Of a DNA stretch of 64,000 nt, positions 17,597 to 22,119 are shown in pieces. Made by a program: the position numbers and the translations under genes. Origin of the DNA: Lophium mytilinum (taxonomy: Eukaryota); NCBI GenBank assembly GCA_010093605.1, contig MU004182.1, positions 1,025,032 to 1,089,031 of the forward strand. Reading direction: 5' to 3'. The notes beneath the pieces were generated by a model. That model saw nothing but the letters and a program-made list of their open reading frames with translations. It was not told where the DNA came from and did no database searches. The stretch's first letter is position 1. The number at the start of each line of letters is the position of its first letter.

Positions 17597-19047
17597 CTAT
17601 GATTTAGAAGGAGTAGGGGAAAAGTTATCTGGGCCACTAAAGTTCCCAATGAATACTACCAGTATTGCACAATAGGCAGCAGACGCAGCGAATAGCTCGT
17701 GTCGAGCTGCCTTCGTGAGCAATGACATCGCCGCAGAAAAAAGAAGGGTAAACACGATGAGGACTCCTACTGCGTCCACAACTGATCTTGGGCTTGATGA
17801 AGTCGTCAGGCGGTACATGGCCATGATGGGTAGAACGAGGAGGACGAAGATGACGAAGGTGATGAGTATTCCGACGAATTTGTCGACTCTTGAGGATGAG
17901 TAGAAGTTGATGTATTTGTTCTTGGTCTTTTCCTGTAGTTCGGGGGTTCGGAGCCAAGCTTGCAGGGGAGGCTCTTTGGTGCGAAGCAGCCACTACGAGT
18001 GTGAGCTTCGGTAGGTTCCCACGAGATCATGCTAGACTTACCTTGAGGAAGCGGTCCGTATGCTGGAGCATTGACTCAACACCACCATCAAAGCTGGCCC
18101 ATTCCCTTCCATCGCGCAGGCTAATGATGTCTTCCTTACTCCGTATAGAGTCCATCTCTGCGTCCATCAGAGGCTTAGTGTTGTGGTGGTACCGGCGAAC
18201 GCTCCGATAATTGCGATCGGAGGGACGCTGAAAGGATTCCAGAGTTCGTGCTTTAATCAATACTTCGTCTGACCTATATTTAGCACCACTCCGTGCATAG
18301 AAACATTATCATGCTTACCATATTCCATTAGTTTTGCTCGAATGTCACCCAAGATCGTTCGCCTGTTTCTCCTGTCCGGGTCATCTCTACTAGCTTTTGC
18401 AACATCAATCTCTCGTGACTGTAGACGGTCGGGGGCACTATCAAAGTCATCCCAGTCGAGGTCATCTAGTTCTTTTTCGAGGCAGGTAATTTCATCTTGC
18501 AGATCAAGAAGCACCCTGCTATGGAGGTAGGAGAAGCTTCGATAAAGAGCGAAGTTAGCCTCGCTAGACTGAAAAGCTGCCAGGCGAGGGAATCCATTTG
18601 GAGTATTCTCTACTGTTAAGGTTTAGTTTATGCCAGGAAGCCAGCCCTGCGTGTGGCTTACATATTCGTGTATTCGTTTCTGTAACGTCCTCAGGCTCTG
18701 GCTCTCCTCTGAAAGGGCCGGTCAGTTTCCTCATGAATGTTTTCTTCTCCCGTTCTATCATAGTGTTAGTTTATATGTAGAGTAGGCGGCCTCTTGGTAG
18801 AATAGTGAGGCCGGAACAGGAAGTTCTAACCAGGCAAGGGAGTTTCGTTGATAGAGCCGGTGTTGGCAACGGAAGGGGTTCTCGATGATCTTGAAGAGCG
18901 ATCGTCCTCTTGAATATCGATTATAGCATCTCCTCGCATTGTGTCTCCTGTCATGGTAGTATCGGTGGGCGAGGTTGGAGATTGACAGTCAATAGGGCGC
19001 TTCTCCGGGACGAAGGTATCGCCAGTCATTGATCGGGAAGGGGCCAT
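17597..19047 (-). CDS. DUF6594-family membrane protein, about 5 exons
   Basis: Spliced product contains GFPRLAAFQSSEANFALYRSFSYLHSRVLLDLQDEITCLEKELDDLD, then a C-terminal three-TM block ending ELFAASAAYCAILVVFIGN; N-terminus is low-complexity (S/T/D/P). Confidence 0.85.
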
Positions 19048-19534
19048 ATTGCGGCTAGCGCAGTCACAAAGACAAACGAAAGACAAGAAATGCAAGCAAA
19101 ACTTTTGGGGGGAACTTTTGGCGCAGAAGAGAAGGTCAATTCAGTATCTTAAGCAGCGGGTGGGGATGTCACATCGATCGGGGCTCAGCTCTGACCGCCC
19201 CACCGGATCCAATTACACCGGTCTCACGCCTCTTGTGGCTGCCTGGAACTCGAAATACGCCGCAGACCATGTGGCACAGGTGGCGCAGCAATTTGGTGCC
19301 CTCGCTCACCTCCGCCTGCTCTCTGTCTTCAGATCCCTCTCACGCACCCAGGCTCCGTTGTTGTACAGAGCGCCTGAAGAGTCCTTCAACTGGTACTCCC
19401 AATAAGACCGAGACCAGTTGACTTGACTTTTGTACACTGTGAAGTTCTTCTTCATTCTCACTCCGTTCACAATCGCAGTCATGTGAATCTCGTCGTTTTT
19501 TGAAAACTTCCTGGATTGCTAGTAGATCTAGGAG

Positions 19535-19738
19535 TCAGTATTTGCCTCTGACTGTGTCCCAAGCCGATTGACTTACGTCTGGTGCGTTCGGATCAATCGC
19601 GACATCCGACTTCTCATCAGGAATGGTCTCCACTGGGGACGTGAGGCCTTCCGTAATGCTTTGCGAGTCCTCCGCTGACGCCTGATCCTTCGCCGCTTGG
19701 GGGTAGGCGGGGCCCGCCTCTTGCTCGTGCTCTTGCAT
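19535..19738 (-). CDS. Small acidic hypothetical protein (67 aa)
   Basis: ATG in a good context (ACAATG), a TTTTAAAA element about 100 nt upstream, protein-like composition; no recognisable family. Confidence 0.4.
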   Translation of the reverse strand: MQEHEQEAGPAYPQAAKDQASAEDSQSITEGLTSPVETIPDEKSDVAIDPNAPDVSQSAWDTVRGKY

Positions 19739-20557
19739 TGTCTATTGCAGATAGTGTGGTGATAATGTCAAGAAAGGCGTTGCGCGAGTGATAGCCTTGC
19801 AGATTTTTGCGAGGCTAGGAGAGTTCGAGCTGCCGTCTTTTTAAAAGCAGGGCGACTTGTTGACGGCCTCTCAGCACAGCTGCCTTGACGTCTTGAACGG
19901 AACGCTCACAAATGGAGATGGGCTTGCACAGCCGCGTCTCACAGCCCAAGTGGTGACCGGTTGTGGCACAAGGCTTGGGGCCGTTCCCGCCCGCCAGCCG
20001 TATTTATGCTTCGGGAGAGCGGGCAGGGTTCCTTGAACAAAAGTTGGCAGTCCTTGTGAGGCAATTCTGATACTTTGAATATACACCCACTCGAGGGCGT
20101 ATGTACACTTGCCTGGCACCGCTTGAGGGCTGCTGGCGTGTTATTGTCAATCGAAAAAGGTTCATTCTGCCACGCTTGATAGCTCTTCGGGCCACCTCAG
20201 ATGGAGTCAAACCACAGTAGACTGCCACTTTATGTTCAACGATTTGCGGCGGGACCCCGTCCCCGCATTGGCCGACTAGTGAGCCGGGGTGCTGCATGAG
20301 GTGTTCTGTTCTGAGAAGTCACTGTCGCGAGTGATTGACGTGAAAAGCATCCTTGAAGCTTGAGATAATTCAGCAACACATCATCGAGCTATCTGCGGAT
20401 GATGCACTTGTCAAACCACTCGAAGTTCCCTCGCAAGCGCTCACAGCCCCCTGGCGTCTGCTGTGTTCAGAATTTGGGGGCTGACGGGGTGTTTGGGGGC
20501 CAAAAGTTCAGCTGCGGCTCTGGCCTAGCCTTTAAGGCTGCTCGATGCCTCTGACCA

Positions 20558-22119
20558 ATGCCCCTCTCCTCATTGCCCGTCCGCCTCGCCATGGAGACCG
20601 AATCTTCACCAACCGAGCCGTTCCCTCTTGGAAACCGGGTGATTCACGCTAACATACAATCTATCGAGCCTGAAGGCGACGATGGCTCCCCCGACAACTC
20701 CCAGGGCGTCCTTTCTGATGAGCAGAAGAACGCGCGAAATGCATCCTCAGAGATGCAGCTCTGGTGGGATGAAGCCATAGCAAAGAAGTAAGTTCCCTCT
20801 TCCACCACCCTTTAGTTTTGTATATCGACTAACAGATTACTTTAGTATGGAGCTGCCGGATTATTATCGCAATGTCTCTGTCTTGATCATTAAGTGGGAC
20901 GACGAGCTCGACGAGTTAAAGACAGGTCCAGAGGTATTCAATCGCAACACAGCTATGCTTGCATCATTGCCTGACATACGCAAAGGTCATCGAGCTCGAC
21001 GCCCTTTTCCGCAACTCCTTCCACTACAACACGCGCATCGTAGAATTGAACGTGGCGAAGAAGCCTCAACATCAGCTCAACCGTCATATCAGCACCTTTG
21101 TAGAAGACTGTGATGGAGAAAATGTGAGTCGTCTGCCTCGGCGAAGGGGAATTATGAAATGGAGGAGAACTAATGCAAATACTCAGAACCTCATGATCGT
21201 ATATTACACGGGCCACGGCGTATACAGAGAACACGAAAGATACTTGGAGTTGACGGCTTCCACGAAGCTCAGTGTGAAAAGAGGCCTCAATATTGCTGCA
21301 CAGGCCAATTGGGACAAGGCTGAAGAAGCTCTTCGGGACGAAAATGTTGATGGGGATGTTTTGACAATCCTCGATACTTGCTTCTCTAGCAATCTGACCA
21401 AATCAGGGAGGGAGGACACAAGAACGTATGAGCTGCTCAGTGCCTGTGGACTGGATGGGACAACAGCGAGGCCCGGTGAGAACTCTTTCACACGAGCTCT
21501 AATTGACTCTATGAAGGAGCTTTTGGTAGAATTCCCAGATCGCTCCTTTACGACCTTCCACCTAAACCAGCGGATCATCCTACACCCGAACCGGAGAGAT
21601 ACTCCCTCGCTGCTATGGGACAGACTGCGACATCATGAGCGCCACATCCGCCTCTGTCCGCTCAAACCAGAAAGTGACCAGACACGTAAACGTCGTCCAC
21701 CTCCTGGCGGTTACCTCACGTTGAGGTTCGCCATACGGGACGAGAAGCTTAATAGCGAGCAAATCCAACTGTTAACACGACACCTCTCTGAAGCTTTCAA
21801 CAACAAAGCTATGATTGGTGTGCGTAGTATTGATTGGATGGGCATAAAACCAGCCCGAGTGCGACACTTCAGGCGCGCTGCGCTTGCCCTCCAAGCGTGC
21901 CAACAATGGAAGAAAATGGTCAAACGGAGACGACTTCAAAGGATGCAGCAGCACCCGACACCTGAATCCGACCAAACGTTCCTTGGGCCCAACCGAAAAC
22001 GAACACAGGATGAAATGTCCTTCGAGCCGGCTGACGAACGGGAGTCGAAAAGAGACAAGCATTCTCACCACCCAAGGGTGCAATGCCCTATGATCAGTCC
22101 TTTGACTCCACCATCATAA
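20558..22119 (+). CDS. Caspase-fold (clan CD, C14/CHAT-like) putative cysteine protease; introns 20788-20845, 20934-20985, 21124-21186
   Basis: SVLIIKW strand; NLMIVYYTGHG (catalytic His); DVLTILDTCFS (catalytic Cys); YELLSAC...TTARPGENSFTRALI; all three introns keep the reading frame. Confidence 0.8.

Follow-up and report, generated by a model that had tools for sequence, protein, structure and literature searches.

Three adjacent genes of Lophium mytilinum constitute a conserved three-gene module of Dothideomycete fungi. They lie within a 64,000-nucleotide stretch of contig MU004182.1 (GenBank assembly GCA_010093605.1; hereafter the window, in whose coordinates all positions are given) and encode, in this order, a DUF6594 membrane protein (reverse strand), a small protein (reverse strand), and a caspase-fold cysteine protease (forward strand). 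Our data make a functional coupling of the protease with the DUF6594 protein very likely, because the adjacency of their genes is kept across deep clades while the other genes of the window differ. We infer a common, proteolysis-dependent pathway for all three proteins. The reading that we favor, to which we assign a probability of roughly 40%, is a proteolytic switch in which the protease would cut an exposed N-terminal region of the DUF6594 protein, the small protein, or both.

The intron-containing gene models in the window were built by hand. The DUF6594 gene (17597..19047, reverse strand) has five exons (19047..18831, 18754..18662, 18612..18319, 18268..18042, and 17992..17597, stop included) and encodes 408 aa, the small gene (19306..19738, reverse strand) has two (19738..19577 and 19518..19306; 124 aa), and the protease gene, which encodes a clan CD, C14-like enzyme (20591..22119, forward strand), has four (20591..20787, 20846..20933, 20986..21123, and 21187..22119; 451 aa), with an alternative in-frame ATG at 20558 on the same strand. 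All eight predicted introns, i.e., four in the DUF6594 gene, one in the small gene, and three in the protease gene, are spliced out at the exact model borders in a single 4756-nt contig from a public run (X1) whose RNA label is a guess only. The intron ends are GT..AG on each gene's own strand (CT..AC as read for the DUF6594 gene). Because this contig joins every intron precisely, we regard the gene models as confirmed and all three genes as expressed and spliced. The same contig covers positions 17566..22300, including the three genes and both spacers with all introns removed; neighboring transcripts therefore abut or overlap, which is no proof of one long transcript.

These models revise the layout given in the initial annotation of this DNA, which had described a head-to-head pair of DUF6594 and protease genes with about 1.5 kb of upstream DNA in common. 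The linkage of the two genes and their opposite strands hold, but the count of parts does not, as a third gene had been overlooked: the supposed common upstream DNA instead contains the spliced small gene. The true divergent pair is formed by the small gene and the protease gene, with ~850 bp between them, and the DUF6594 gene stands in tandem behind the small gene.

To what extent the genes are neighbors in other fungi was assessed by scanning metagenome contigs with an alignment of 41 protease homologs, which yielded 79 loci (64 groups at 97% protein identity). Thirty non-redundant groups extend 3000 bp or more upstream of the protease; 24 of them have a DUF6594 gene there on the opposite strand, and six (L030, L032, L033, L039, L051, and L067) lack it. 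The small-protein domain is encoded between the two genes in 40 of the 79 loci, and in 29 of the 37 groups that have at least 1300 bp of upstream DNA. Elsewhere in the flanking DNA of the loci (~237 kb), no DUF6594 was found, save in one rearranged locus; there (L073:17-2450), a protease fragment, the small gene, and DUF6594 abut on one strand, which could reflect a true inversion, a copy in decay, or an artifact of assembly. As a control, window open reading frames (ORFs) of at least 70 aa from positions 1..45000 were compared with the 79 loci, and relatives were found only for ORFs inside 17600..22116. The absence of synteny in the flanks holds in L001 and L003, whose proteases are 65% and 63% identical to that of the window and which offer ~10 kb upstream and 8-10 kb downstream. 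The adjacency of protease and DUF6594 genes is far beyond chance.

Public annotations of named species were inspected as well. For 29 of the 30 species present in both the protease and the DUF6594 hit lists, the two genes are on contigs equal in size, from which we take them to share a contig, and six of these contigs are shorter than 100 kb (8.5, 9.9, 25, 43, 73, and 73 kb). For the thirtieth species, Paraphoma, the two entries come from two different assemblies. Most named species have a single entry in each list. In five species (Paraphaeosphaeria sporulosa, Neocucurbitaria sp., Didymosphaeria variabile, Coniothyrium glycines, and Alternaria dauci), protease and DUF6594 carry positional locus tags that are two apart, and therefore one gene lies between the orthologs.

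On the protease-domain tree, the trio is found in the window's own clade, which spans Pleosporales, Gloniales, and Mytilinidiales, in a second deep clade together with extra proteins of Lindgomyces, Dendryphion, and Plenodomus, in a further clade with Patellaria, and in locus L072. Many Pleosporales genera that are well studied have the trio, among them Alternaria, Bipolaris, Pyrenophora, and Parastagonospora. The extra copies of the second clade (P0283, P0305, and P0346) come from Pleosporales species, and since Lindgomyces, Dendryphion, and Plenodomus also possess the first protease type (Plenodomus via its DUF6594 ortholog only), this clade most likely represents a paralog. Pairwise identities of the protease and of DUF6594 are correlated across the 24 linked non-redundant loci (Mantel r 0.85, reached in 0 of 2000 permutations), and the trees of the two proteins agree in their main clades, so the two genes have travelled together. 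Collectively, the trio has stayed together as a block in speciation and probably in duplication as well. In the second clade, the block extends further, with a short-chain dehydrogenase (SDR) gene on the far side of DUF6594 and an M28 peptidase gene past the protease, each in five groups at 80% protease identity (loci L054, L065, L069, L074, L049, L035, and L036; e.g., L065:5856-6783, reverse strand, and L065:11724-12944, forward strand).

Linkage of this kind could also arise if shared compact regulatory DNA holds the trio together and the products have no mutual action, an explanation that we consider unlikely. In its favor, the divergent promoter that separates the small gene from the protease gene (19739..20590) contains conserved non-coding words: TGGGGGCY is present at 20475..20482 and 20494..20501 on the forward strand and GCGGCTGTGC at 19926..19935 on the reverse strand. 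In a set consisting of the window and 15 clade-A loci, in which loci near-identical at the protease level were kept, GGCCCCCA occurs in all 16 sequences and GCACAGCCGC in 12 of 16, compared with block-shuffle maxima of 7 and 4; within the window alone, the words are no more frequent than chance. The run X1 contig (RNA by guess) that passes through the trio and its spacers, with transcripts that abut or overlap, and the wider synteny with unrelated SDR and M28 genes in one clade are further points in favor of co-regulation. On the other hand, the DUF6594 gene lies outside the divergent pair and yet is retained, the closest loci, L001 and L003, already have neighbors other than those of the window, and the main unlinked lineage has lost the catalytic Cys of the protease (see below), a loss that regulatory constraint alone does not predict. 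Gene order reshuffles quickly in Dothideomycete genomes, and even if the coupling were only regulatory, the trio would still be a rare case of deep gene-order conservation. As to the words themselves, TGGGGGCTGA may resemble calcineurin/Crz1 response elements; a literature search found no paper in which GGGGCTG occurs together with Crz1 or the calcineurin-dependent response element, and the accessible part of a paper on Ascochyta CRZ1 gives no motif.

The sequence and model of the protease suggest that it is catalytically intact, with a caspase fold and a His/Cys pair. The spliced translation is, letter for letter, Lophium mytilinum BU16DRAFT_555792 (P0001, 451 aa). Its AlphaFold model (predicted local distance difference test [pLDDT], 72; predicted template modeling score [pTM], 0.65) has the caspase-type alpha/beta fold of peptidase family C14 in clan CD. 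The top Foldseek matches are MALT1, metacaspases, and caspases (probability 1.00, E 1e-7 to 1e-5), with E 8.5e-08 for MALT1 and 4e-07 for the Candida glabrata metacaspase, and VIA-align superimposes ~190-205 residues (model residues ~58-301) at a root-mean-square deviation of ~3 A and Z scores of 17.2-17.9, the value for caspase-3 and MALT1 being 17.9. The dyad is placed as in C14 peptidases, behind core strands three and four: H151 in YYTGHG (codon 21214..21216, forward strand) comes after the strand formed by residues 142-149, and C206 in ILDTC (codon 21379..21381, forward strand) is at the end of the strand 198-206. Both residues are invariant in 41 of 41 aligned homologs, as is D204, two residues upstream of the Cys, in agreement with the intact clan CD dyad reported in the initial annotation. 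The Pfam profile PF00656 gives 20.5 bits for the window protein and 25.1 for its ortholog P0004 (cut-off, 21.4), and some homologs have a precomputed match to this family. An Asp two residues before the Cys is a feature of the Arg/Lys-specific MALT1 and metacaspases; because of this resemblance, we propose that the protease is probably Arg/Lys-specific.

As a single chain, the protease combines a short post-Cys loop with a conserved C-terminal alpha/beta domain of its own and a basic disordered tail, and its N-terminus consists of a short disordered stretch and one helix, with no Pfam domain. In the window clade, the Cys motif reads D-[TC]-C-[YF]-[SA]-S-N; other clades are more variable. Type I metacaspases are marked by a signature around the Cys and by an N-terminal Pro/Gln-rich or zinc-finger prodomain, and neither mark is present in the Cys motif or at the N-terminus of the protease. 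A profile of the protease family had no match among PDB sequences at E <= 1, solved metacaspases included. Thus, the fold and the placement of His and Cys are like those of MALT1, the type I metacaspases (yeast Yca1, Candida glabrata, and Trypanosoma MCA2), and caspases, whereas identity in the structural alignments is only 9-15%. Unlike MALT1 and metacaspases, the trio protease has no death, Ig, or zinc-finger prodomain and carries the C-terminal domain and basic tail instead, and its Cys motif differs from that of metacaspases. To our knowledge, fungal caspase-fold enzymes other than metacaspases have been little studied; our searches found no papers on Peptidase_C14 in Pezizomycotina and nothing relevant on caspase-like clusters in filamentous fungi.

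The wider protease family comprises 1577 representatives at E <= 0.001, and the named distant relatives are from Botryosphaeriales, Patellariales, Vermiconidia, one Arthoniomycete, and one Sordariomycete. Two of these distant relatives (from Lasiodiplodia theobromae and Apiospora arundinis) bear the name "homeobox domain-containing protein" in public records; in P0001, a homeobox is not detected by Pfam. The C-terminal tail of the window protease orthologs is basic and resembles a nuclear localization signal.

The identification of the neighboring gene as a DUF6594 gene, likewise made in the initial annotation, is well supported. The whole Pfam PF20237 profile is covered by exons 3, 4, and 5 (profile positions 1-85, 88-150, and 149-238 of 238; E 3e-22, 2e-07, and 5e-24), and no Pfam match was found in exons 1-2. 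Once spliced, the model reads through to a single stop at its end and is identical in 383 of its 408 residues to P0121 from Mytilinidion resinicola, an ortholog that matches the profile over its full length (1-238; E 3e-64, 217.6 bits). Exons 1-2 (18662..19047, reverse strand) encode a predicted disordered, S/T/P/D/E-rich N-terminal region with basic stretches directly before the DUF6594 core: 78 of the first 100 residues are S, T, P, D, E, G, R, K, N, or Q, and the AlphaFold model of P0121, which is all-helical and of moderate confidence (pLDDT 63, pTM 0.38), falls below a pLDDT of 50 at residues 1-72 and 75-115. The rest of the model features a long helical hairpin at 115-208 and further helices at 304-333, 340-366, and 370-389. 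A Kyte-Doolittle scan of the window protein detects three hydrophobic segments within residues 310-397, and exon 5 (17597..17992, reverse strand) accordingly encodes three predicted transmembrane helices followed by a short C-terminal tail. The model and the scan agree with each other and with the architecture first noticed in the sequence, i.e., a disordered N-terminus, a helical core, and three C-terminal transmembrane helices.

Among 43 DUF6594 orthologs, mean column identity is 63%, membrane helices 2 and 3 are near-invariant, and short conserved motifs are found in the N-terminal region. Three Lys or Arg residues precede membrane helix 1 and one follows it; because of this charge bias, the disordered N-terminal region, and the variable first loop, we propose that the N-terminal region may face the cytosol, the compartment in which the protease would be located. 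A conserved Arg before the core, present in at least 90% of the 43 orthologs, was considered as a cleavage site and is not claimed as such, being absent in three clade-A loci. Compared with the rest of the Pfam DUF6594 family, the trio orthologs have an extra ~100-aa disordered N-terminal region and are linked in the genome to the genes of a protease and a small protein. No papers naming DUF6594 or PF20237 were found in the searched literature.

Structural searches with the DUF6594 model did not lead to a known effector. Foldseek against the PDB gave nothing at E <= 0.001, and the matches of a wide VIA-align search were limited to generic helical hairpins, among them ESCRT-III, SMC, and designed hairpins, aligned to residues 109-213 with Z ~8, which falls in the stated noise range for helical models; neither of these searches found a known pore-former resembling the model, and the ESM Atlas contained no usable match. 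The gasdermin pore-forming domain is built on beta sheet, and the all-helical DUF6594 model does not have this fold, as judged on secondary structure at pLDDT 63 and pTM 0.38.

The strong conservation of the membrane helices and the hairpin would also fit a structural role for DUF6594, and it is here that a second explanation has to be weighed. The DUF6594 protein could be an anchor or scaffold that, with the small protein as an adaptor, positions or activates the protease at a membrane, where the enzyme would cut proteins other than DUF6594 in non-lethal signaling or quality control. Such a membrane platform is supported by the same linkage, co-inheritance, and Cys retention as the proteolytic switch, and the C-terminal alpha/beta domain and basic tail of the protease could be its docking parts; MALT1, for comparison, is activated on a scaffold. 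However, the disordered, basic-site-rich N-terminal region of DUF6594 looks like a substrate region. We regard a platform as possible, although somewhat improbable.

The third gene encodes a protein identical to Lophium BU16DRAFT_555791 (P0241, 124 aa), with a conserved C-terminal domain of ~65 aa and an N-terminal half that appears, from its sequence, to be acidic and of low complexity. The protein is fast-evolving. Searches of Pfam, of PDB sequences, and of the ESM Atlas did not assign it to a known family: Pfam returned sub-threshold noise only (OB_MEIOB_N at E 0.006-0.025; six families, each in at most 3 of 36 members), a profile of the small protein had one match among PDB sequences at E 1.3, and the top matches in the ESM Atlas were unnamed cyanobacterial clusters (0.89-0.90). 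Our impression is that the domain could be an SH3/Tudor-like barrel. A predicted complex of the small protein with protease residues 1-400 scored 0.25, 0.31, and 0.29 against a mark of 0.34, which, controls being absent, is evidence neither way.

The groups in which the linkage is missing are informative about the protease itself. Four of the six unlinked groups (L030, L032, L033, and L039) make up one clade, sister to the window clade, in which Thr, Glu, Pro, or Gln stands in place of the catalytic Cys. In contrast to the unlinked groups, of which only one (L067) has kept the Cys, it is retained in 22 of the 23 linked groups with data (24 linked), and it is found at the catalytic column in 34 of 35 linked loci with data; L056 has a Cys one column earlier, and L074 has no data at that column. 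Loss of the catalytic Cys coincides with loss of linkage in the main unlinked lineage, a pattern that fits the idea that the neighbors matter only to an active protease. Together with the adjacency in 24 of 30 groups over several deep clades and the absence of the other window genes, this loss of Cys along with linkage upholds the coupling of protease and DUF6594 postulated in the initial annotation. At the Cys-retaining L067, a WD40-repeat gene lies upstream on the opposite strand (L067:6814-7812, reverse strand), and the protease match runs on into an 895-aa ORF with no Pfam match (L067:10463-13147, forward strand).

The sister branch (loci L029, L030/L031, L032, L033, L039-L041, L048, and L050; e.g., L030:6935-8746, forward strand, and L030:3496-5970, reverse strand) has a partner of a different kind. 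Of the seven loci tested, six have a HET domain fused N-terminally to the protease domain (23-27 bits; cut-off, 22.5), and a homologous gene is present upstream on the opposite strand in seven loci (four groups), three of which give weak matches to PigL_N, a HeLo-like N-terminal domain (22.8-27.0 bits; cut-off, 27.2). DUF6594 and the small gene are absent beside the HET-fused loci. From these domain matches, the HET-fused, Cys-less protease and the PigL_N-like gene look like a separate, undescribed two-gene module of cell-death type. A kinship of DUF6594 with the PigL_N-like neighbor was considered and rejected (hhalign probability, 0.1%). The HET domain has a role in incompatibility. The HET-fused branch connects the protease family with the fungal cell-death domain repertoire, and the HET domain is listed in a review of fungal cell death, in the passages accessible to us (PMC12881547).

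The same branch bears on the biological role suggested in the initial annotation, namely a polymorphic allorecognition or heterokaryon-incompatibility cell-death locus that is situated in accessory DNA, evolves under balancing selection, and has DUF6594 as its gasdermin-like executioner. Such a role would be in keeping with the HET fusion in the sister branch and its position beside a gene with a weak PigL_N match, and also with the protease-activated fungal gasdermins described in the accessible passages of two reviews (PMC10197012 and PMC12881547). Yet both window proteins are conserved orthologs over Pleosporales, Gloniales, and Mytilinidiales (mean column identity, 63% for DUF6594 and 51% for the protease), the transmembrane helices are near-invariant, and the DUF6594 model is all-helical with membrane helices. 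None of the three proteins of the trio has a Pfam match to a HET, NLR, or repeat domain. In addition, it is the flanks of the window that are not syntenic with relatives, and the three genes of the trio are conserved core genes. Because both proteins are such strongly conserved orthologs, which speaks indirectly against balancing selection, we consider an accessory allorecognition locus very unlikely.

We therefore return to the proteolytic switch. In this mechanism, the targets of the protease would be the exposed N-terminal region of DUF6594 with its many basic sites, the small protein, or both; the small protein would possibly serve as a regulator, adaptor, or decoy. Cleavage would alter the activity or the assembly of the DUF6594 membrane protein, and the output could be membrane permeabilization and cell death or, alternatively, a non-lethal membrane or stress response. 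The lethal version can be put more specifically: an old, fungus-specific, three-component pathway in which the protease, held or aimed by the small protein, trims the DUF6594 N-terminus, after which the DUF6594 protein assembles into a membrane-breaking structure that executes cell death. We find this version doubtful, given that a cell-death output is suggested by analogy and by the HET-fused sister branch only. If true, it would provide an executioner unrelated to gasdermin or HeLo/MLKL, the first function of DUF6594, and a HET-fused, dead-protease offshoot of the same family.

Several observations weigh against the switch. The Arg ahead of the DUF6594 core is missing in the clade-A loci L001, L006, and L012, and the N-terminal region can be traced in the window clade only, the profile matches of the distant trios beginning at the core. 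Near-invariant transmembrane helices are also what a constitutive membrane function without activation would show. The Cys is intact and both neighbors are absent in L067 and in L034 (2.2 kb of upstream DNA), and the joint loss of Cys and linkage rests on one or two evolutionary events. Finally, given the SDR and M28 flanks in the second clade, some of the linkage there may be plain slow rearrangement.

Known effectors of regulated cell death in fungi include HeLo/HET-S proteins, gasdermins with S8 or CHAT proteases, and HET/TIR-like domains. The closest parallel to the trio is offered by the fungal gasdermin clusters, such as Podospora HET-Q1 with its S8 protease HET-Q2 or the fGSDM/CHAT pairs, in which a protease is likewise clustered with a membrane-acting partner; for the trio, as for those clusters, the clustering is the main functional argument. 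About 80% of fungal gasdermin genes adjoin protease genes, and 19% of these are CHAT, according to the accessible part of one review (PMC10197012). The trio differs from such clusters in that its partner is an integral, three-helix, all-helical DUF6594 protein and not a soluble gasdermin, and in that its protease is a stand-alone C14-like enzyme with no S8, CHAT, NLR, or repeat parts. It further has a third, small gene, and its genes are conserved orthologs rather than of the variable immune type. With HET-fusion proteins that have HeLo-like neighbors, the sister branch of the trio protease shares the N-terminal HET fusion and the opposite-strand neighbor; the window trio, compared with that branch, has no HET domain, an intact Cys, and both DUF6594 and the small gene. 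The accessible passages of the two reviews of fungal cell death (PMC10197012 and PMC12881547), which cover gasdermins and their S8 and CHAT proteases, do not describe the trio.

The trio thus ties an intact caspase-fold protease to the uncharacterized fungal membrane-protein family DUF6594 and an orphan small protein in what would be a hitherto unstudied pathway. It also offers a testable hypothesis, built on a single catalytic Cys and a single candidate substrate region among three genes.

Other genes around the trio were examined in the window. Upstream, an intron-free ORF of 925 aa (13410..16187, forward strand) appears by eye to encode a long helical, coiled-coil-like protein; Pfam gives no match at E <= 0.001, and none of the 79 loci contains a relative. 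It is followed by a 127-aa ORF (16669..17052, forward strand) with a signal-peptide-like start and several Cys residues but no Pfam match, which by eye may encode a small secreted protein. The two downstream neighbors, which are not syntenic with the trio in other loci, encode an IBR (RING-between-RING) type protein (23074..23928, forward strand; PF01485, E 1e-07) and an FtsJ-like methyltransferase (24314..25183, reverse strand; PF01728, E 1e-15).

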